Source: Escherichia coli (lineage in GTDB: Bacteria > Pseudomonadota > Gammaproteobacteria > Enterobacterales > Enterobacteriaceae). From it: a stretch of DNA of 10,236 bases. Numbering within the stretch: position 1 is the first letter of the stretch; each line of letters opens with the position of its first letter. Below are positions 4,132 through 10,236 of this stretch, in pieces. The position numbers and the translations under genes are program-made. The notes beneath the pieces are model-generated. The model worked only from the letters and a program-made list of their open reading frames with translations. It did not search any database and was not told the origin of the DNA. The stretch is taken from the NCBI RefSeq assembly GCF_003334355.1, contig NZ_QOWP01000056.1; one strand, given 5' to 3'.

Positions 4132-4207
4132 GCCGATATAGCTCAGTTGGTAGAGCAGCGCATTCGTAATGCGAAGGTCGTAGGTTCGACTCCTATTATC
4201 GGCACCA
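4132..4207 (+). tRNA. thrW: tRNA-Thr (anticodon CGU)
   Basis: 76-nt sequence GCCGATATAGCTCAGTTGGTAGAGCAGCGCATTCGTAATGCGAAGGTCGTAGGTTCGACTCCTATTATCGGCACCA with encoded CCA; anticodon loop carries CGT; matches E. coli thrW. Confidence 0.96.
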
Positions 4208-4224
4208 TTCAAACATCTCCCCAA

Positions 4225-4245
4225 GTCTACTAAAGTCTTTCAAAA
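4225..4245 (+). repeat. Direct repeat copy 1 (GTCTACTAAAGTC + YYTCAAAA) between thrW and int; candidate integrase arm-type or accessory-factor site
   Basis: 13-bp core GTCTACTAAAGTC at 4225-4237 is identical to 4288-4300; flanking CTTTCAAAA vs CCCTCAAAA. Confidence 0.7.
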
Positions 4246-4287
4246 CCCCTTATAATCCGCGTATTAAAGCCCCGTTCGTCTTTTGAC

Positions 4288-4308
4288 GTCTACTAAAGTC
4301 CCTCAAAA
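4288..4308 (+). repeat. Direct repeat copy 2 (GTCTACTAAAGTC + YYTCAAAA)
   Basis: Identical 13-bp core, 63 bp downstream of copy 1. A perfect TATAAT hexamer (4251-4256) lies between the two copies. Confidence 0.7.
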
Positions 4309-4372
4309 TCTACGGTCAGATGGGGGTACTTATGGGGGTATTTGCTGTTCGGTTTAGTGGAGGTACCCCCAA

Positions 4373-5587
4373 GTGAAACTCAATGCCCGTCAAATAGACA
4401 CAGCCAAGCCAAAAGAGAAGGCTTACAAGCTGGCCGATGGTGGCGGTTTGTATCTCTTGGTAAAACCTAATGGAGGTAAATACTGGCGACTTAAATATCG
4501 TGTAGCTGGTAAAGAGAAGCTATTGGCACTAGGTGTGTATCCTGAGGTTACTCTAGCCGATGCTCGGGCAAAACGTGAAGATGCGAAAAGAGGTATCGCT
4601 GGTGGTATCGATCCGATGGAAGCGAAACGAGAGGAAAAGATTGCCCGGGAAACGCAGTTAAACAACACCTTCAAAGATATTGCCCTTGAGTGGCACAGCA
4701 GCAAATTAAAAAAATGGTCTGCTGGTTATGCTTCAGACATCCTCGAAGCCTTCAACAAAGATGTGTTCCCTTACATTGGCAAAAAACCAATCGCCGAAAT
4801 CAAACCACTTGAACTTCTGAATGTGCTGCGGCGCATTGAGGGGCGCGGTGCTACAGAAAAAGCCAAAAAAGTGAGGCAGCGGTGCGGGGAAGTTTTCCGC
4901 TATGCAATAGTCACTGGTCGCGCAGAGTATAACCCTGCACCAGACCTTACTAGCGCGATGCAAGGCCATGAATCTAATCATTACCCTTTCCTTACAGCCA
5001 AAGAATTACCTGATTTTTTCAAGGCATTGTCCAGTTACTCAGGAAGCGCATTGGTTGTTATGGCGGCTCGTCTACTGATTATCACAGGCTTGCGGACTGG
5101 CGAACTACGTGGCGCATTATGGGATGAAATTGATTTCAACAAGGCTCTCTGGGAGATACCCGCTTCACGTATGAAAATGCGGCGGCCTCATATTGTGCCA
5201 TTGTCTGAGCAGGCTCTTTCGCTTATTGGGAAGATTAGAGAAATAACAGGCAATTACCCTCTTATGTTTCCCGGGCGCAATGATCCAAGGAAAACAATGA
5301 GTGAGGCCAGCATAAACCAAGTGTTTAAGCGCATTGGCTACGCTGGACGTGTAACTGGTCATGGGTTCCGGCACACTATGAGTACGATTTTGCATGAGCA
5401 GGGCTATAACACCGCGTGGATAGAAACGCAGCTCGCTCACGTTGATAAGAACTCAATTCGTGGCACATACAACCATGCGCAATATCTGGATGGAAGGCGG
5501 GAGATGCTTCAATGGTATGCCGACTATATGGATTCTCTCGAGCATGGCGGAAATGTGGTGCATATGGTGTTTGAAAAACACGCATGA
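4373..5587 (+). CDS. Site-specific tyrosine recombinase, P4-type integrase family
   Basis: 404-aa ORF with GTG start, GGAGG 4359-4363. N-terminus KLNARQIDTAKPKEKAYKLADGGGLYLLVKPNGGKYWRLKYR is typical of the P4-family integrase N-terminal arm-binding domain; C-terminal GHGFRHT...RGTYNHAQY carries the H-x-x-R and catalytic Tyr motifs. Sits immediately 3' of a tRNA. Confidence 0.92.
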   Translation: MKLNARQIDTAKPKEKAYKLADGGGLYLLVKPNGGKYWRLKYRVAGKEKLLALGVYPEVTLADARAKREDAKRGIAGGIDPMEAKREEKIARETQLNNTFKDIALEWHSSKLKKWSAGYASDILEAFNKDVFPYIGKKPIAEIKPLELLNVLRRIEGRGATEKAKKVRQRCGEVFRYAIVTGRAEYNPAPDLTSAMQGHESNHYPFLTAKELPDFFKALSSYSGSALVVMAARLLIITGLRTGELRGALWDEIDFNKALWEIPASRMKMRRPHIVPLSEQALSLIGKIREITGNYPLMFPGRNDPRKTMSEASINQVFKRIGYAGRVTGHGFRHTMSTILHEQGYNTAWIETQLAHVDKNSIRGTYNHAQYLDGRREMLQWYADYMDSLEHGGNVVHMVFEKHA

Positions 5588-5840
5588 AACAACTGGACAA
5601 GTATACAGAGGTTTACTAAAGTATAGGGGAGTAGATTGATAAAAACTCACAGAGGATTACTATTTAACAGTTAGCCCTGGAGAAGGGCAATCGCTCTTTT
5701 AACAACGAAGATGGAATCTTCTACGCAGCTGAAAAGCTGGATGCTCTTTAACAGCCTTTGGTGCTTTCCTGATGCAGGAAAGAATAGGGATACATGCACC
5801 TTTACAATGCATGTAATGATTCATCCATGAGGCTGCGGAT

Positions 5841-5863
5841 CGCTGACAAAGCGCAATTGCTCT
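5841..5863 (+). repeat. 23-bp direct repeat copy 1 (CGCTGACAAAGCGCAATTGCTCT) with palindromic GCAATTGC core; candidate operator
   Basis: Identical to 5954-5976. Part of a 26-bp imperfect dyad TGACAAAGCGCAA|TTGCTCTTTAACA. The right arm GCTCTTTAACA recurs at 5743-5753 and, with one extra T, at 5692-5704. Confidence 0.8.
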
Positions 5864-5953
5864 TTAACATTGATGTGGGCGGGATGGTTCGTCCCGCAGT
5901 GACCGATAGATTTCTATCGGGAAACATACAATGATTCAAATATGAATCTACGG

Positions 5954-5976
5954 CGCTGACAAAGCGCAATTGCTCT
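5954..5976 (+). repeat. 23-bp direct repeat copy 2 (CGCTGACAAAGCGCAATTGCTCT)
   Basis: Perfect copy 113 bp downstream of copy 1. Similarity extends upstream imperfectly (ATGAGGCTGCGGAT vs ATGAATCTACGG). Confidence 0.8.
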
Positions 5977-6238
5977 CTTGCCTGCCCACCATGCCCTGAA
6001 AAAGGGCGTTCTTTAAAACTACTGGATGTCACGCCTAATAGCGTGATCCTGCCGAAATGCAGGGTAGCTCTACCCTTGTGGAGCAAACAAACCAAAACAA
6101 TCTGACTATCTTTTATAAAAGACCGCAATATGTTTTTCATATTGTGGTCTTTGGCGTATTCGACATTTGATGCAAATAAAACTCTCGCCATTCGTTGCAG
6201 GAGGGAGTTATTGCGTCATTAGTACAGGATATTAATAA

Positions 6239-6442
6239 ATGGCTAATTACAATTCATTAATTCGTCTCTCTGAAGTTCAAAGGCGAACTGGTTATAGCAA
6301 AGCATGGATTTATCGTCTTATTAGTCAGGGGAGGTTCCCTAAACAGGTAAAAATTGGAAGTCGGGCAATTGCTTTTGTTGAGTCTGAAATAGATGAATGG
6401 ATTGAGAAGTGTATATTAGAATCTAGAGACGAGGTGGCCTGA
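6239..6442 (+). CDS. alpA: AlpA-family phage regulatory protein (Xis/Vis-like winged-helix DNA-binding protein)
   Basis: 67-aa ORF MANYNSLIRLSEVQRRTGYSKAWIYRLISQGRFPKQVKIGSRAIAFVESEIDEWIEK...; helix-turn-helix segment and E-I-D-E-W motif characteristic of AlpA/Vis family; typical position downstream of a P4-type integrase. Confidence 0.85.
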   Translation: MANYNSLIRLSEVQRRTGYSKAWIYRLISQGRFPKQVKIGSRAIAFVESEIDEWIEKCILESRDEVA

Positions 6443-6873
6443 TGGAAAAGAAAAACCGCCCATTACAGGCGGCTAATTCAGATATTCGCGTATCTGATGT
6501 TACGCCCCTGACAAAATCCCTTCAAGCACCAAAGCGCACACCGAAAAAGCATCGTGCCAGAGTCTATATGCTGCGTACTGGTATAGAGGGATGGACAGAA
6601 AATGACATTCTTCGCTACTGCCGTCTGTCTTCTGGTCGTAACTATGCAACAGAGTTAGAACGCCAGCTTGGAATCACTCTGGAGCGTATCGACGAAAAGA
6701 ATCCTGATGGTATCGGAACACACCTTCGCTACCGTTTCTCCTGCCGTGGTGATGTTCTGAAAGTGATCACTCATGTTAACCATCTTGCGAGCATAAATGA
6801 TCACAACGGACTTTCTCAGCAGGAAATTGCCGACATTCTGAAACTCTACCCGGACGCGTTTAACGCCGCCTAA
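6442..6873 (+). CDS. Hypothetical protein (143 aa), basic N-terminal tail; function unknown
   Basis: ATG overlaps the alpA stop (TGATG); GAGGTGG SD at 6431-6437. No family recognised. Confidence 0.7.
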   Translation: MEKKNRPLQAANSDIRVSDVTPLTKSLQAPKRTPKKHRARVYMLRTGIEGWTENDILRYCRLSSGRNYATELERQLGITLERIDEKNPDGIGTHLRYRFSCRGDVLKVITHVNHLASINDHNGLSQQEIADILKLYPDAFNAA

Positions 6874-6885
6874 CGGAGACTGAAA

Positions 6886-7719
6886 ATGAACATCGAAAAA
6901 AGCAGATTAATTTCTGAGGCCGCCCCTCATCTGAACGCCTCTCTGGGCACAATTAACGGTAATGAATTTGCCGCAATTGTCCCGGTTATTCCTGGTCATA
7001 TCGGTGGGCGTGAAACCAATATTGTTAGCGCAAAAGCGTTACACAAAGCGTTGGGCGTGGGAAAAGACTTCTCTACATGGATCACTGATCGCATCTCTGA
7101 ATATGACTTCACCATTGGGCACGATTACTCAGTCCATAAAACAATTTCCCCAAATTTGGGGAAAAGCCCGAATGGCGCGGCTTACAGCAAGATTAAGCAG
7201 TCTGGCAGACCCGGCAAAGACTATCTGTTAAGTGTCGGAATGGCGAAAGAACTGGCAATGATCGAACGCAATGATCAGGGTCGCGCTATCCGCCGTTATT
7301 TCATCCAGTGCGAGGAAGAATTACAGCGTAGCGTGCCTGAAATCGCCGCCCGCTATCGTCGCCAGCTAAAAGCCCGTATCAGTGCCGCAAACAACTTTAA
7401 GCCAATGTGCGATGCGCTGAATATGGCCCGTGCCGAGATGGGTAAAACGACGCAGCAACACCACTACACAAACGAGAGCAATATGATTTCTCGTATCGTT
7501 CTTGGTGGGCTAACTGCTAAGCAGTGGGCGCGGATAAATGGCTATTCTGGCGAACCTCGCGACCATATGAACGCAGAACAGCTTGAGCACCTCTCATATC
7601 TCGAAAGCACCAATATCACGTTAATTGATATGGGCATGGAATATGAGCAGCGCAAAGGAGAACTCACCCGCCTGTCGCAACGCTGGCTCGCCAAGCGTCT
7701 GGAGGTGGTCAATGTCTAA
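6886..7719 (+). CDS. Phage antirepressor-like protein (AntA/KilAC-type N-terminal domain), 277 aa
   Basis: GGAGA SD 6875-6879. Motifs ...AKALHKALGVGKDFSTWITDRISEYDF... and ...DYLLSVGMAKELAMIERNDQGRAIRRYFIQCEE... resemble the AntA-type antirepressor N-terminal domain as I recall it. Confidence 0.8.
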   Translation: MNIEKSRLISEAAPHLNASLGTINGNEFAAIVPVIPGHIGGRETNIVSAKALHKALGVGKDFSTWITDRISEYDFTIGHDYSVHKTISPNLGKSPNGAAYSKIKQSGRPGKDYLLSVGMAKELAMIERNDQGRAIRRYFIQCEEELQRSVPEIAARYRRQLKARISAANNFKPMCDALNMARAEMGKTTQQHHYTNESNMISRIVLGGLTAKQWARINGYSGEPRDHMNAEQLEHLSYLESTNITLIDMGMEYEQRKGELTRLSQRWLAKRLEVVNV

Positions 7720-7894
7720 GCCAACAGGAACACCACAACCACAAAAACGCTACAAAGATGCCCACGGAGCACTCGTTACTGTCGAAAGCGTGTCTCACAA
7801 CCGAGTGACGTTTTATCGCGACGGGTATCAATCGCCATGCGTACAACCGCTGGCGCGTTTCATGAAGGAGTTCGCGGAGGTTAACAAATGCTAA
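7712..7894 (+). CDS. Small phage-type protein (60 aa); tentatively DUF4222-like
   Basis: ATG 7712 with GGAGGTGG 6 nt upstream, overlapping the upstream stop (ATGTCTAA). Translation [60 protein letters not shown]. The track ORF starts further upstream (7625) inside the preceding gene; the internal start is better supported. Confidence 0.65.
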   Translation: MSKPTGTPQPQKRYKDAHGALVTVESVSHNRVTFYRDGYQSPCVQPLARFMKEFAEVNKC

Positions 7895-8955
7895 CCGTCC
7901 AGAAGAAGACATTTTCACTGGCTGGTATGTCGCCAAAATCCAGCAATATGACGGCAAAGTCAGGCATTAATACAGCAGATACAAGCAAAGTTTATCATTT
8001 GCTGGTGGTCGGAACGGATGCCTTAACCATATCAGAAATCTCGGGCGATGATATTAGCATTGAGAAGGTCAGCGGCTGCGCCAGAAAATTTCTGGTCGTA
8101 GATGATGTCTTCCGCTCGTGTAGTGACTCCACAAAAACATTCGTCCACGCGCGTGACGTTAACGAAATGAGCGCGATGTACTGTGCATCTGGTGCTTCCA
8201 ATAGCGAGTTTTCGGAGTCCATAAAAAAGAGCTTGCCGTTATGCGGCAACACGGTTTATGGTTATAAGGCACCTCATAAAACGGGTGCCGGGATTGGCGT
8301 CCTGGTAAATCGAATGGCGACATATGACGCGCCGAGCGTCTTTTTTTATGTCGTAGGTCTGACTCACCCATTTTTTGGGCGTTGGTGTATAATCCAGCGC
8401 CTTTGTCAATCAATGGTGGCTCAGGCAGGGGCTTCTTCGGAAGCGCCGGTATCCATTCGAGCCGGTTACGCCAACCCTGTCTGGGCTACCACCAGCGAAA
8501 TTGGCGTTTCCGGTGGTAGCGTTACATGCTATCGAATGGAGGCTGCCACATGCTGGCTACTACCCCTACCCAAAAACCGCAATTTATCTGGATTATCGCC
8601 GCAGTTCGCCGCGATTGCCCGACAATTACCGCCAAAATTCATCATATTGCTGCCGAGTCTGAACGCGATGCTCGCCGTTCTCTGGTGCGCGATCACGTCT
8701 GCTTTTTTGCTGGTCGTATCCGCATGGAGGTGGCACATGATTAAAACCTACGATGTGCATATGGATCCCCTCGAACGCACAAGCCAGATCATCACACTGA
8801 CAGAAGTGATTAACGACATTCTGGTGAGCAACTCTCCCTCACGAGACGAAAGACTGAAGGCGTTACTCGCGATATTGGATCTCGCCGTTCGTGACGTTCA
8901 TTTCCTGCTGGAAGGTGGCGAAATGCCAGGAAAAACGGGGGCAACCAATGAATAA
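7888..8955 (+). CDS. Unresolved 355-codon open frame: real N-terminal gene start at 7888; frame stays open through the structured RNA region, the Icd-like gene (other frame) and the 8737 small gene
   Basis: ATG 7888 with GGAGG 7 nt upstream and ATGCTAA overlap with the upstream stop supports initiation. No stop in this frame until 8953-8955. Residues ~176-215 ([35 protein letters not shown]) resemble what databases label ash family protein, but this stretch coincides with strong RNA hairpins. The true C-terminus is unknown. Confidence 0.3.
8326..8347 (+). terminator. Intrinsic-terminator-like element inside the 7888 frame
   Basis: GACGC (8326-8330) / GCGTC (8336-8340) 5-bp GC-rich stem, 5-nt loop, followed by seven T (8341-8347). 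A second T6 run is at 8371-8376. Confidence 0.35.
8388..8393 (+). promoter_or_regulatory. Consensus -10 hexamer TATAAT, TG immediately upstream; possible promoter for the structured RNA/icd leader
   Basis: GTGTATAAT at 8385-8393. No convincing -35 at 17 bp spacing, so weak. Confidence 0.25.
8428..8520 (+). ncRNA. Candidate c4/CI-type antisense regulatory RNA (three consecutive hairpins)
   Basis: HP1 8431-8444: GCTTC/GAAGC stem with TTCG tetraloop. HP2 8445-8466: 6-bp stem (2 wobble) with a 10-nt loop carrying TCCATTCGA (8452-8460). HP3 8485-8520: 9-bp stem CTACCACC.../...GGTGGTAG plus 6-bp inner stem, TTGG loop. The HP2 loop is exactly complementary to TCGAATGGA (8532-8540), which overlaps the GGAGG SD of the Icd-like gene, and 8/9 complementary to 8310-8317. 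Confidence 0.4.
8550..8744 (+). CDS. Host cell division inhibitor Icd-like protein (64 aa)
   Basis: ATG 8550 with GGAGG 8538-8542. Translation [64 protein letters not shown]; the F-x-W-x-x-x-A-V-R-R ... E-x-x-A-R-R ... F-A-x-R pattern matches my recollection of Icd-like proteins of P1/P4-type elements. The track start at 8526 lacks an SD. Confidence 0.6.
   Translation: MLATTPTQKPQFIWIIAAVRRDCPTITAKIHHIAAESERDARRSLVRDHVCFFAGRIRMEVAHD
8737..8955 (+). CDS. Small acidic hypothetical protein (72 aa), independently initiated
   Basis: ATG 8737 with GGAGGTGG at 8727-8734; overlaps the icd-like stop as ATGATTAA. Translation [72 protein letters not shown]. Same frame as the 7888 ORF. Confidence 0.55.
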   Translation: MIKTYDVHMDPLERTSQIITLTEVINDILVSNSPSRDERLKALLAILDLAVRDVHFLLEGGEMPGKTGATNE

Positions 8956-9142
8956 CTCAATTAATACCCCTCGCCTTACGTCCGCACTTCAATTAATCGA
9001 GCAAGCAGCGGCTGTCCTGGTTGCTGTCAGTCTTTCGGCTGAAGAAATGGACGCTGCTGATGTCGTGGATGCGATTAAAGCGTGCTCATCTTTGGTTAAC
9101 GATGCCCGTGCCGAGCTGGTAATTCTTGGGGGTGAAAAATGA
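8948..9142 (+). CDS. Small acidic hypothetical protein (64 aa)
   Basis: ATG 8948 overlapping the upstream stop (ATGAATAA); [64 protein letters not shown]. The track start at 8891 lies inside the upstream gene. Confidence 0.6.
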   Translation: MNNSINTPRLTSALQLIEQAAAVLVAVSLSAEEMDAADVVDAIKACSSLVNDARAELVILGGEK

Positions 9143-9402
9143 ATATCAACTTAATTTATCGTCATCCGTGTGAGCTGGAAATTGAATCATTGCTGGGGCG
9201 TGAAGAGCCATATCCAGACACATTCACTCCCGCAGATTGCGCGACTGAACGGCTTACCAGAGCGCGCACAGGTCTGGTTCATGTGATGAATGAGATTGTT
9301 CCCTCGGTGGGAGGGGAACAGGCGACAGTAATCAATAGCTGGCTACAAAAAGTTACCTCCCTGATAGATATCGGTTTAATCGATGTGGAGAGTGCGAAAT
9401 GA
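9139..9402 (+). CDS. Small acidic hypothetical protein (87 aa)
   Basis: ATGA overlap with upstream stop; GGGGGTG upstream; MNINLIYRHPCELEIESLLGREEPYPDTF... Confidence 0.65.
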   Translation: MNINLIYRHPCELEIESLLGREEPYPDTFTPADCATERLTRARTGLVHVMNEIVPSVGGEQATVINSWLQKVTSLIDIGLIDVESAK

Positions 9403-9620
9403 CCAACATCCAGCTCATTGAAGCGCAATGTCGCATCGAACAGGTTCAGACTGTTTTAGGGTTCTGGCTTGAAGGGGCCAGCCCCAGCAACAGAGACAAG
9501 TTAATGATTGGCGCGGTTATGTCACTGCTCAATGGCGTACCAGAAGCTATTCAGGAAGCGGACGAATTGTTGGGCAAATATGAGTTACAGAATCATTCAG
9601 GCGAGGCGAAACATGAATAA
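9399..9620 (+). CDS. Small acidic hypothetical protein (73 aa)
   Basis: ATGA overlap with upstream stop; GGAG at 9387-9390; MTNIQLIEAQCRIEQVQTVLGFWLEGASPSNRDKLMIGAVMSLLNGVPEAIQEADELLGKYELQNHSGEAKHE. Confidence 0.6.
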   Translation: MTNIQLIEAQCRIEQVQTVLGFWLEGASPSNRDKLMIGAVMSLLNGVPEAIQEADELLGKYELQNHSGEAKHE

Positions 9621-10161
9621 TTTCTTAACCTTCCATGCAGAAGCAACGCCTGACGGCGTAAACATCATGCACCGCAGCAACGATGGCATGACAGAACGCG
9701 TTGAGACCGTCTCATATATTGATGCCGTAAATCGTCTGGATGCCGGGGATTATGACGATAAACCAGATGAAGGCATGTTTATACATCTCGCTATTGCCAG
9801 TGGCGGCAACCAGGGATATTTCGATTACACATCACAGCATCACGTGATTATGTGGCGCTGGCTGATAGCAACAGCATTCATCAATGAAATGAGAAAGGAA
9901 AACGGCACCGTCAGCATTATTGATGACAGTGGCAATCATTCCGTGGTTTCTGTTTATTCCAATGGCATCGTCGCCATGCCGCTGTATCCAGTAGCAGAGC
10001 GCCTCGCTATGGCAAACAACATTGAGGGCGCAATGATCGAGAAATATGGTGTTGATGTCGGAACAAAGAATGCCATCATTTTTTACAGCAACATGTTCGA
10101 TGTCGAACAGGGAACACTCACTTCGTTTGGGCGAGAAGTGCTTGCCGATCTTCACAACTGA
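9613..10161 (+). CDS. Hypothetical protein (182 aa); stop codon supplied by the first 3 nt of the downstream IS, so possibly C-terminally truncated
   Basis: ATG 9613 overlapping upstream stop (ATGAATAA), GAGG at 9603-9606; MNNFLTFHAEATPDGVNIMHRSNDGMTERVETVSYIDAVNRLDAGDYDDKPDEGMF.... The track start at 9508 is inside the upstream gene. TGA 10159-10161 coincides with the IS terminal TGAACCGCC. Confidence 0.7.
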   Translation: MNNFLTFHAEATPDGVNIMHRSNDGMTERVETVSYIDAVNRLDAGDYDDKPDEGMFIHLAIASGGNQGYFDYTSQHHVIMWRWLIATAFINEMRKENGTVSIIDDSGNHSVVSVYSNGIVAMPLYPVAERLAMANNIEGAMIEKYGVDVGTKNAIIFYSNMFDVEQGTLTSFGREVLADLHN

Positions 10162-10236
10162 ACCGCCCCGGAAATCCTGGAGACTAAACTCCCTGAGAAA
10201 GAGGTAAACAGGATGACTAAAAATACTCGTTTTTCC
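10159..10236 (+). mobile_element. IS3-family insertion sequence (IS629/IS1203-like), left end; continues beyond window
   Basis: TGAACCGCCCCGGAAATCCTGGAGACTAAACTCCCTGAGAAAGAGGTAAACAGG then ATG...MTKNTRFS matches my recollection of the IS629-type left inverted repeat and OrfA N-terminus. From memory, not verified. Confidence 0.65.
10213..10236 (+). CDS. IS3-family transposase OrfA, N-terminal 8 codons (3'-partial at window edge)
   Basis: ATG 10213 preceded by GAGG; MTKNTRFS...; only 24 nt available. Confidence 0.5.

Follow-up and report, generated by a model that had tools for sequence, protein, structure and literature searches.

The 355-codon reading frame that runs uninterrupted from the ATG at 7888 to the TAA at 8953-8955 on the plus strand of the window, the 10,236-nucleotide stretch of Escherichia coli DNA analysed here, is the counterpart of P4 eta, probably translated to protect long transcripts from premature termination and not for the sake of a conserved protein product. 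Argued by analogy, its likeliest role would be that of eta itself, in which translation coupled to an upstream gene guards against premature termination. The anatomy of the region, its homology to eta, the RNA-type conservation within it and the conservation of frame and register are direct observations. A long frame laid over such RNA genes is an arrangement already described, in P4 eta; the peculiarities of the present lineage are a 1-nt shift that carries the frame out of icd and into the next gene, and the antisense capture of a P22-type terminase/pac piece.

The stop-free frame singled out in the original prediction is real (355 aa in the ORF listing): the remaining five frames over 7888-8955 hold 13-18 stops each, and the probability of 355 open codons in random sequence of matched composition is 3.7e-8. 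Its start region, read from the sequence (7876-7894, plus strand), has a GGAGG at 7876-7880, 7 nt upstream of the ATG (7888-7890), and this ATG overlaps, as ATGCTAA, the TAA (7892-7894) of the upstream DUF4222 gene. We aligned 12 close copies, namely the window and 11 E. coli genomes that are 91-100% identical; all 12 retain the ATG, and some alleles have an ATGA-type overlap. Initiation at 7888, coupled to the DUF4222 stop, is plausibly real, as had been proposed from the GGAGG and the overlap. RefSeq names the ORF 'ash family protein' (WP_024190170.1, from a genome that is 100% identical), and Pfam PF10554 (Phage_ASH) matches its residues 124-232, corresponding to nucleotides 8257-8583, with an E value of 5.7e-30. 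Several PHROG families also match, and their 'transcriptional repressor' labels derive from an old protein reading of P4 cI. The long frame has no match in a defence-system library, and none of the solved structures is related to its product by sequence. At its end, the next gene of the operon (8948-9142, plus strand) begins with an ATG at 8948 that overlaps the long ORF's stop (ATGAATAA) and extends the chain of coupled genes toward the primase.

On sequence grounds, the island that carries the frame, inserted at tRNA-Thr, is a phage satellite (PICI) of the EcCIMP1 type. The tRNA-Thr gene lies at 4132-4207 with the integrase adjoining it, alpA and the primase are present, and the att core TCCTATTATC, common to EcCIMP1, sits within the tRNA sequence. 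EcCIMP1 is the PICI of E. coli MP1, located at tRNA-Thr next to proA, and it has been mobilised experimentally (PMC11773190). The two islands are 94.7-98.4% identical, with matching gene order and the same proA/tRNA-Thr site, and EcCIMP1 likewise carries the intact 355-codon frame; its isrK/C4/target cassette and its terminase fragment belong to alleles other than those in the window. Its authors name the 'Ash family protein', leave the RNAs, the frame and the pac site undiscussed, and describe the packaging mechanism as unknown (PMC11773190). The early operon runs alpA, orf143, antA/B, DUF4222, several small genes and primase, and starts and stops overlap throughout. Within it lies a cassette of ~660 nt that encodes no conserved protein and comprises, in order, a P22-type terminase piece with a pac site, a putative promoter, isrK/seqA with its terminator, C4/CI, and a CI target covering the ribosome binding site of icd.

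That the middle of the frame consists of RNA genes and signals had been noticed from the letters alone, and each of the elements concerned, the hairpin, the T7 run, the TATAAT, isrK and C4, is present. A putative isrK promoter, the counterpart of P4 PLE, occupies 8233-8262 on the plus strand (TTGCCG 8233-8238, an 18-nt spacer, TATGGT 8257-8262), and its -10 element ends 7 nt before the RNA start at 8269. It is a weak consensus match and goes unreported by a consensus scan; within the family this block does not vary, and the relatives retain TATGGT. A minus-strand 'terminator' at 8249-8233, which overlaps this putative promoter, was rejected as a functional element. The isrK-type RNA (8269-8347, plus strand), homologous to P4 seqA, is recognised by Rfam RF01394 at 8269-8346 with 67.1 bits against a gathering threshold of 50, over model positions 1-77; the equivalence of isrK and seqA is described in PMC3632133 and PMC4825925. 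It has its own terminator, found by a terminator scan as a hairpin at 8326-8340 followed by the T7 run at 8341-8347, and holds at 8309-8319 the sequence ATCGAATGGCG, a target site complementary to the C4 loop. In the spacer between isrK and C4 stands a perfect -10 hexamer, TATAAT at 8388-8393 (plus strand), which is a possible second C4 promoter; it is limited to alleles with a 62-nt spacer, and L015, L005 and L006 lack that segment. The C4-type antisense RNA itself, homologous to the P4 CI RNA, lies at 8409-8496 on the plus strand (Rfam RF01695, 79.5 bits against a gathering threshold of 45), and its specificity loop is ATCCATTCGAG at 8451-8461. A second target of this loop, equivalent to P4 seqC, occupies 8531-8542 on the plus strand, where ATCGAATGGAG (8531-8541) overlaps the icd Shine-Dalgarno sequence GGAGG at 8538-8542.

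The pattern of substitution over these elements is that of RNA. Across 35 distinct sequences, the three-helix structure of C4 comprises 28 pairs that are 99.9% canonical, 15 of them with compensatory changes; entropy is 0.54 in paired columns versus 1.01 in unpaired ones, and by codon position of the long frame it is 0.67/0.68/0.79. The loop pairs with both targets in co-varying runs of 8-11 nt in eight of nine alleles, P4 included, while the ninth (L005) pairs well at the downstream target only; complementarity at that second target, 9-11 nt, co-varies with the loop in 9 alleles. Between alleles, dN/dS across the cassette is 1.14, and all three plus-strand frames are open over C4. The sequence of the Ash segment is under RNA, not protein, constraint, and its conservation is due to RNA structure and three-site co-variation. 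The suggestion that 'ash' calls are translations of a conserved RNA gene is borne out in part: the family match does coincide with isrK and C4 and with RNA constraint, but the frame itself appears to be kept open.

Upstream of the RNAs, the N-terminal 127 codons (region A, 7888-8268, plus strand) are open and show no clear protein-like conservation. Within the family their dN/dS comes to 0.46-0.49, and for the equivalent stretches of relatives it is 0.56-1.9; the probability that the 127 codons would be open given their composition is 6e-4. Among 5.8 billion proteins, residues 1-123 have 39 close relatives only, none outside the element family, and neither NCBIfam nor PHROG holds a family for region A. 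Part of it is the antisense of a terminase gene: positions 8036-8145 on the minus strand are a fragment of the small terminase gene (gene 3) of the P22 group, with ~91% identity to an E. coli P22-like terS and 86% to P22. These features argue against a small 'first gene' that has lost its stop, one of the explanations originally offered, and a comparison of stop positions in homologous islands yielded no relative with a stop that would bound such a gene.

The terminase fragment is the codon-aligned antisense of the long frame, and such an antisense would be open with a probability of 0.47. The equivalent of the P22 pac site is the reverse complement of 8121-8142, and P22 records annotate pac beneath the match. 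The P22 pseudo-pac pattern was set aside as evidence: on the published pattern the site scores 15-16 of 17, yet a score of 15/17 is reached at 11 places in the window, and because the pattern is too permissive the case for pac rests on the gene 3 homology. The corresponding upstream segments of relatives L063 and L037 contain no terminase/pac fragment and have no phage match; the capture thus belongs to the window family alone and leaves the openness of those segments unexplained. In Kapi1, the known helper of EcCIMP1, the small terminase gene is a different one and nothing matches the fragment. Rejected were a gene on the minus strand beneath region A (neither of the ORFs there, 7995-8252 and 8159-8413, has a family match) and the terminase-like minus frame as a gene in its own right (68 codons only, with no start codon). 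A fuzzy motif search additionally placed a 19-nt motif, TTCGTTAACGTCACGCGCG, at 8148-8166 on the minus strand, and motifs resembling it occur in one or two copies on the plus strand of the relatives' region A.

What is conserved along the whole region is the absence of stops. The 355-codon frame is unbroken in 10 of the 12 aligned copies; L015 has a 39-nt deletion that is in frame, and L008, a complete genome, has a stop at 8119. The layout is repeated in relatives that are just 73-79% identical. For a wider sample, a DNA-pattern search around C4, independent of ORFs, gave 38 sequence clusters, whose counts overstate independence because the clusters are phylogenetically related. In this sample the median open span around C4 is 675 nt in the long frame versus 219 and 147 nt in the other two, and the long frame is held open in 33 of the 38 clusters while the others close within ~50-250 nt. 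Eight of the nine values of the isrK-to-C4 spacing equal 1 mod 3 (by a binomial estimate, at least seven of the other eight would match the first by chance with a probability of ~0.003). Five upstream segments of 108-159 codons, mutually without detectable similarity, hold no stops in the long frame and 1-16 in the others, and their composition-based probabilities of being open are 1e-4 to 9e-3 each. A coupled start, with the stop of an upstream ORF overlapping the start codon of the equivalent frame, is found in 24 of 33 clusters. New stops among close relatives number one in the long frame versus a mean of ~3.8 elsewhere, a difference that is not significant (Poisson estimate ~0.1). Database ORF calls of relatives often change frame at the A6 and T7 runs; these shifts and the stop in L008 may be assembly errors, or may mean that the frame is dispensable. 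Judged from these comparisons, selection seems to hold this frame free of stops.

Register is conserved as well. The long frame is in register with the ATG of the downstream gene in 27 of 31 clusters, and the lineage of the window deviates. Here that gene is the Icd-like gene (8550-8744, plus strand), a 64-aa homologue of P4 kil matched by NCBIfam NF033153 (E 5e-20, 71.3 bits against a cut-off of 25), which lies in another frame, as had been recognised. Its ATG stands at +136 from the C4 anchor instead of +137, 1 nt nearer than in the 27 clusters, and is therefore out of register with the long frame. The junction before the ATG reads GCC AC ATG in the window versus GCC AxC ATG in those clusters (GCCACATG in the window, where the P4-like register would be GCCACCATG). 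Through this 1-nt difference the long frame misses the icd stop and merges with the gene at 8737-8955. The out-of-register junction is common to relatives only 73-79% identical, and L126 and L120 represent in-frame and out-of-frame states 1 nt apart. Over icd, dN/dS is 0.15-0.18 in the icd frame versus 1.9-2.6 in the long frame, which argues against the dual coding that had been raised for this overlap; an alternative frame of icd would be open with a probability of 0.24-0.50. The 72-aa gene that follows (8737-8955, plus strand) has its own GGAGG at 8726-8730 and an ATG that shares nucleotides with the icd stop (ATGATTAA); being in the frame of the long ORF, it forms the C-terminus of that ORF. 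Its dN/dS is 0.20 against L063, it is annotated separately in L003 and L007, and it has no family match in NCBIfam, PHROG or the defence-system library.

The immunity region of P4 reportedly comprises kil, seqA, cI and seqC, an account said to go back to Sabbattini and colleagues in 1995. In BLASTP, residues 116-220 of the long frame align with residues 29-148 of P4 eta (P4 frame 8168-8812, minus strand) at 40% identity (E 8e-19), and in P4 a 214-codon frame spans the isrK match (8692-8615) and the C4 match (8507-8420) and ends with the Icd-like Kil. The passages of PMC10111431 that treat P4 describe eta as coupled to an upstream alpA homologue and as holding an internal constitutive promoter, CI and seqA; the same passages summarise Forti et al. 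(1999, J Bacteriol 181:5225) in the words 'Eta translation prevents termination'. The frame in the window resembles eta in that its start is coupled to the preceding gene, and in that it spans an internal promoter (putative here), isrK/seqA and C4/CI up to the ribosome binding site of kil/icd. The two also share the register to both RNAs, the three-site logic of loop and targets, and an operon leading to the primase. The differences lie at the ends and in the setting. P4 eta has 197-199 codons with kil in frame at its end, whereas the frame in the window has 355, is 1 nt out of icd register, reads icd in an alternative frame, and ends with another nested gene, 8737-8955. Before the RNA part it has ~115 added N-terminal codons with the terminase/pac fragment. 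Coupling is to DUF4222 upstream, where P4 has the alpA homologue, and the setting is a PICI in place of a P4-like satellite.

Two further systems are related in part. In Gifsy-1 of Salmonella, orf45 overlaps a C4-like RNA and its tagged protein was detected (Hershko-Shalev et al. 2016, PMC4825925); its translation is required, by coupling, for that of the gene downstream, and its nucleotides are conserved while its amino acids vary (PMC4825925). The isrK-orf45-anrP arrangement resembles ours in having isrK with its own terminator, followed by a processed C4-like RNA (STnc1160) that overlaps a translated frame. It differs in that orf45, a short frame of 45 aa, has its start within the RNA region, not upstream of isrK, and in that the downstream gene is antirepressor-like rather than icd and IsrK is an activator in trans. 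The immI region of P1 and P7 (c4-icd-ant) shares a C4 upstream of icd, targets at the icd ribosome binding site, and an icd homologous to 8550-8744. In those contigs of our sample that are presumed P1-like from their size (88-119 kb), stops close the frame across c4 at 43 nt upstream and 137-392 nt downstream of the anchor, and an eta-like bridging frame is absent from them.

We propose, by extension from P4, that transcripts arriving after induction from the upstream AlpA-dependent promoter would be translated along the long frame, so that ribosomes would cover the cassette. Neither the isrK terminator hairpin nor the CI- or Rho-dependent termination by which the short constitutive transcript is silenced would then stop the long one, and the replication genes would be expressed as a consequence. 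Transcripts from the internal promoter would have an untranslated leader, yield isrK and C4, and be shut down by pairing of C4 with its two targets. Over most of the frame the choice of amino acids would be immaterial, and only the absence of stops and the register would be maintained.

It is unlikely that the frame instead encodes a functional multi-domain regulator of an 'Ash/Bro-network' kind, with an Ash domain (for example for DNA binding) joined to the 72-aa module and the RNAs embedded under dual constraint. The matches to PF10554 and to several PHROG families would fit such a protein, as would the placing of Phage_ASH in the Bro network of regulators by Mageeney et al. (PMC10111431). 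The register kept with the downstream gene (Kil/Icd or a Rha-like antirepressor) in 27 of 31 clusters could mean that the fused protein itself matters; over C4 there is a slight excess of third-position variation (0.79 versus 0.67), and the first ~16 residues are alike across variants. However, dN/dS is ~1.1 over the Ash segment and 1.9-2.6 over the icd overlap, and RNA structure with three-site co-variation explains the conservation that the family models record. For residues 1-123 there are no distant relatives, and part of them is a terminase fragment read in antisense; nothing among the solved structures shows sequence relatedness, and the icd register has been lost in the window lineage without apparent harm, with the states in L126 and L120 separated by 1 nt.

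An untranslated accident is also improbable. On that account annotation alone created the 'ash family protein' and the Pfam and PHROG models record a conserved RNA, the frame having arisen where a structured GC-rich RNA, a coding fragment read in antisense, an icd whose alternative frame is permissive and a real in-frame gene were joined by chance. The coincidence of the Pfam match with isrK and C4, the unconstrained amino acids and the openness of all plus-strand frames over C4 are consistent with it, and so are the high chances of openness in the alternative frame of icd (0.24-0.50) and in the terS antisense (0.47). The PHROG repressor labels, which go back to P4 cI having once been read as a protein, point the same way, as does RefSeq, where some records show a pseudogene and icd here although the frame is intact. 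Against it stand the 33 of 38 clusters open in the same frame while the others close within ~50-250 nt, spacer lengths that vary by multiples of three, the in-frame 39-nt deletion, the five mutually dissimilar stop-free upstream segments and the coupled starts in 24 of 33 clusters. Translation in this frame is, moreover, indicated by P4 eta genetics, as far as the P4 passages of PMC10111431 relate them, and by the tagging of Gifsy-1 ORF45 (PMC4825925). Because it is the translation of P4 eta, rather than its product, that is reported to matter, such ORF calls amount to more than mistaken translations of RNA. A recent fusion, pseudogene or sequencing artefact peculiar to the window genome, in which a stop loss or frameshift joined a small gene at 7888 to what follows, could draw on the homopolymer-run frame shifts in some database entries and on the 1-nt difference before the icd ATG relative to P4-like elements, but is scarcely credible, since EcCIMP1 and independent complete genomes at 91-100% identity have this very frame of 355 codons, the layout with its out-of-register junction is common to relatives of 73-79% identity, and no relative has a stop delimiting a separate small first gene.

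The frame may tentatively be read further, as a bridging ORF whose sole selected properties are freedom from stops and register, and which keeps ribosomes on a ~660-nt stretch of the operon that encodes no conserved protein. Such a frame would tolerate RNA and cis elements that are inserted, swapped or inverted within it as long as no stop is introduced, and the Ash family would be a translated by-product. The terminase fragment would then be a packaging route, with P22/IME10-type helpers preferred over Kapi1. Should this bridging reading be true, the elements of the slot would be immunity RNAs with an exchangeable specificity cassette, promoters, and a pac site copied from P22-type helper phages.

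In the satellites and prophages of enterobacteria, isrK and C4 lie beneath thousands of calls that read 'ash family protein', 'transcriptional repressor' or a fused 'Icd-like' protein. Annotation as an eta-type bridging frame would make these calls consistent and would stop them from hiding the RNAs. The region offers a clear case of a frame conserved for openness and register while its amino acids drift, and it ties the early operon of a PICI to the mechanism of P4, in which translation decides whether a transcript survives RNA-based immunity. EcCIMP1 is genetically tractable and allows direct testing, and the terminase/pac fragment provides a concrete hypothesis for how islands of the EcCIMP1 type are packaged.

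Between an ATG at 7888 and a TAA at 8955 (+), the long frame runs for 355 codons with zero stops, against 13-18 in each of the other five frames; openness of this length has a probability of about 4e-8 in random sequence of equal composition. The original prediction of a stop-free frame agrees with both the ORF listing and the stop counts in all six frames, and each element it named was found. These are a GGAGG at 7876-7880 (+) upstream of the ATG, a predicted coupled start (ATGCTAA, from 7888, +) in which that ATG overlaps the stop of the preceding DUF4222 gene, a hairpin (8326-8340, +) with a T7 run after it, a TATAAT (8388-8393, +), the Icd-like gene (8550-8744, +; NCBIfam E 5e-20) in a frame other than the long frame, and a small 72-aa gene at 8737-8955 (+), which is in frame and forms the end of the long frame. 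RefSeq labels the whole frame 'ash family protein' in a genome identical to the window.

The window reads phoE, proB, proA and tRNA-Thr (4132-4207), then an integrase and co-oriented small genes, with successive head-to-tail overlaps from alpA to the primase gene. The island (4132-10236) is 94.7-98.4% identical to EcCIMP1, the characterised phage satellite of E. coli MP1 (NZ_CP139039 3565000-3586500), and shares its gene order and its site between proA and tRNA-Thr. Judged by this comparison, it is an EcCIMP1-type PICI at the tRNA-Thr next to proA; EcCIMP1 itself has been mobilised experimentally (PMC11773190). Relatives carry the int-alpA RNA (RF02996) between integrase and alpA (L002 53-119, L006 63-128), and no match to it was found in the window at the gathering threshold. 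The corresponding interval of the window holds a 129-aa minus-strand ORF (5802-6191), hypothetical in the annotation of L001.

Two RNAs lie inside the long frame, both on the plus strand and both over their Rfam gathering scores: isrK at 8269-8346 and C4 at 8409-8496, which the literature treats as counterparts of two elements of satellite phage P4, seqA and the CI immunity RNA (PMC3632133, PMC4825925). The hairpin and T7 are isrK's own terminator. The Pfam Phage_ASH match (residues 124-232, nt 8257-8583) covers both RNAs and little besides, as had been suspected of the ash-family segment. PHROG 'transcriptional repressor' families match the same stretch, one of them running on into Icd in a single frame; their labels go back to an old protein reading of P4 cI, annotated to date in NC_001609. 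A 62-nt spacer with the perfect TATAAT (8347-8408) is present in some alleles and missing in others (L015, L005 and L006), so in this island C4 may have its own candidate promoter, and elsewhere its synthesis may depend wholly on read-through at the isrK terminator. An inverted repeat, TTGCCGCATAACGGCAA, at 8233-8249 shares bases with the -35 region of the candidate isrK promoter; in the scan it scored as a terminator on the minus strand, and it could be an operator instead.

That the long frame encodes a functional Ash protein is improbable on the pattern of constraint. The 28 predicted pairs of C4 are 99.9% canonical across 35 distinct sequences, and 15 of them have compensatory changes; variability tracks pairing (0.54 paired vs 1.01 unpaired) and not codon position (0.67/0.68/0.79). 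In C4, the hairpin loop (8451-8461) has two complementary sites, one in isrK (8309-8319) and one at 8531-8541 that overlaps the icd Shine-Dalgarno; loop and both targets change together in eight of nine alleles, P4 included, and the ninth (L005) pairs well at the downstream site only. The cassette holding the RNAs and targets (about 8293-8537) occurs as at least four alleles among relatives, with about half of its columns differing. At least eight alleles are counted with the window, L002, L010, L015, L063, L006, L005 and P4; in most of these the loop and both targets change in concert, presumably as a set of immunity specificities. The cassette has sharp borders, and far less variation is seen on either side of it, in icd and in region A (the N-terminal 127 codons). 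Across the cassette, the long frame has a dN/dS of 1.14 between alleles. Over icd, against relatives about 78% identical, it is 1.9-2.6 for the long frame vs 0.15-0.18 for the icd frame on the same bases, which does not support the proposed dual coding there. Amino acids are thus unconstrained over both stretches, and a single conserved protein of about 355 aa is not what the homologues show. The 72-aa gene has a dN/dS of 0.20 at the same divergence. In region A (7888-8268), values of 0.46-0.49 within the family, and 0.56-1.9 in the corresponding segments of relatives, indicate at most weak constraint and are inconclusive; a search of both strands of the region for a clearly coding frame found none. 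A search of 5.8 billion proteins with residues 1-123 yielded only 39 relatives, all close, and NCBIfam and PHROG gave no family match. On these dN/dS, pairing and homologue-search results, the long frame has no clear protein-level conservation outside its last 72 codons, and none in the RNA cassette or where it overlaps icd.

Slightly less probable still is an untranslated accident. Parts of the frame could be open by chance (0.24-0.50 for the icd alternative frame, given the Icd protein and codon usage; 0.47 for the terminase antisense described below), and the deficit of new stops among close relatives is not significant. Against this stands a sample of loci drawn by a DNA pattern for the C4 core, independently of ORFs (121 distinct loci, which fall into 38 clusters at 80% identity). 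Around C4, the median open length is 675 nt in the Ash frame and 219 and 147 nt in the two others, and the long frame is present in 33 of the 38 mutually related clusters; the exceptions include 88-119 kb contigs, presumed on size alone to be P1-like. The conserved isrK motif lies at nine distances from the C4 anchor (85 to 172 nt), eight of them 1 mod 3 (binomial estimate about 0.003); therefore spacer length changes in threes, which RNA function does not require. Five segments upstream of isrK (108-159 codons), without detectable similarity to one another, have no stop in the long frame, and every other frame of theirs has 1-16 (P 1e-4 to 9e-3 each, given composition). In 24 of 33 clusters, the stop of an upstream ORF overlaps a start codon of the frame. 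Openness, multiple-of-three spacing, stop-free upstream segments and coupled starts are, at the level of sequence, the marks of a frame that is translated.

An artefact or recent fusion, by sequence error, frameshift or stop loss, is scarcely credible and is contradicted by the comparative data: when the window and 11 E. coli genomes are aligned (91.4-100% identity over 1.45 kb), 10 of the 12 copies have the full frame, one is shortened to 343 codons by an in-frame deletion of 39 nt and one carries a lone stop at 8119, and the frame is intact in EcCIMP1 too. RefSeq is inconsistent: some genomes have it as an intact gene, and others, where the frame is just as intact, have a pseudogene and a separate icd. 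Database ORF calls of close relatives shift frame exactly at A6 (8223-8228) and T7 (8341-8347), giving products of 155, 168, 179 and 210 aa; these shifts could be assembly errors, or real length variation that switches the long frame off.

Two features are peculiar to the window lineage. The downstream ATG lies 137 (or 140) nt from the C4 anchor in 27 of 31 clusters, in register, as in P4 (GCC ATC ATG). The window family and three further clusters have it at 136 (GCC AC ATG), and the frame meets icd out of register; one base separates in-register (L126) from out-of-register (L120) junctions. The ATG of the 72-aa gene lies across the icd stop (ATGATTAA), and this overlap by itself brings the shifted frame into register with that gene; the frame continues to 8955, where its stop overlaps the ATG of the following gene (ATGAATAA). 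The second peculiarity is an N-terminal extension of about 115 codons with a terminase fragment. On the minus strand, 8036-8145 is a piece of about 107 nt of a P22-group small terminase gene (gene 3), about 91% identical to P22-like phages; the long frame is its codon-aligned antisense. The piece includes the annotated P22 pac-site position, equivalent to the reverse complement of 8121-8142, and may be the island's packaging site; the packaging mechanism of EcCIMP1 is unknown according to its paper (PMC11773190). Island alleles match different phage terS alleles (IME10/CurroJimenez type in the window, P22 type in L012), a pattern suggestive of repeated exchange with helper phages. The terS of Kapi1, the helper known for EcCIMP1, is unrelated and has no match to the fragment. 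All region-A variants carry a 19-nt motif, TTCGnGAcMAGTACGCGnG, upstream of isrK, in one or two copies (45 nt apart if two). It lies on the plus strand in L063, L104, L037, L137, L006 and L120, and in the window family on the opposite strand (minus, 8148-8166), directly adjoining the terminase fragment; a protein-binding site is one possible reading, an inverted segment another.

P4 has a comparable 214-codon open frame (8168-8812, minus) spanning its isrK (8692-8615) and C4 (8507-8420) matches and ending in a 65-residue Icd-like sequence, Kil, with three adjacent ATG codons inside. These ATGs are reportedly the candidate starts behind the 197-199 codons of eta in Forti et al. 1999. Window residues 116-220 align with residues 29-148 of the P4 frame (40% identity, E 8e-19), up to a conserved '...EAA' just 5' of the kil/icd ATG. 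The C4 loop and its two targets repeat the seqA/seqB/seqC logic of P4; the window frame differs in being longer, out of register with icd, ended by another nested gene and carrying a helper pac fragment. According to PMC10111431, the transcript that starts at a constitutive promoter inside eta is soon terminated via CI and seqA and processed into CI, only the upstream late promoter leads to translation of full-length eta, and 'Eta translation prevents termination'. The orf45 of Gifsy-1 overlaps a C4-like RNA and is translated, the translation of the next gene depends on it, and its nucleotides are conserved while its amino acids vary (PMC4825925).

A long frame over immunity RNAs has been known in P4 since 1999 and is remarked for PICIs in PMC10111431; the window case is a variant of this P4-type overlap. 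Among the accessible papers we found no account of multiple-of-three spacing or of openness without amino-acid conservation, and both results are incremental. Without the long frame, about 655 untranslated nt (7895 to 8549), holding an intrinsic terminator and the CI targets, would interrupt an operon of overlapping genes, and we therefore read the frame as an eta-type bridge. Its anatomy, eta homology and conservation pattern are observed in the frame itself; the anti-termination role is taken from P4, and we infer by that analogy that it would act likewise in this island. Ribosomes from the upstream gene would carry on translating across the cassette and so shield long, induction-specific transcripts from termination, while transcripts from the internal promoter would stay untranslated, yield isrK and C4, and be silenced.
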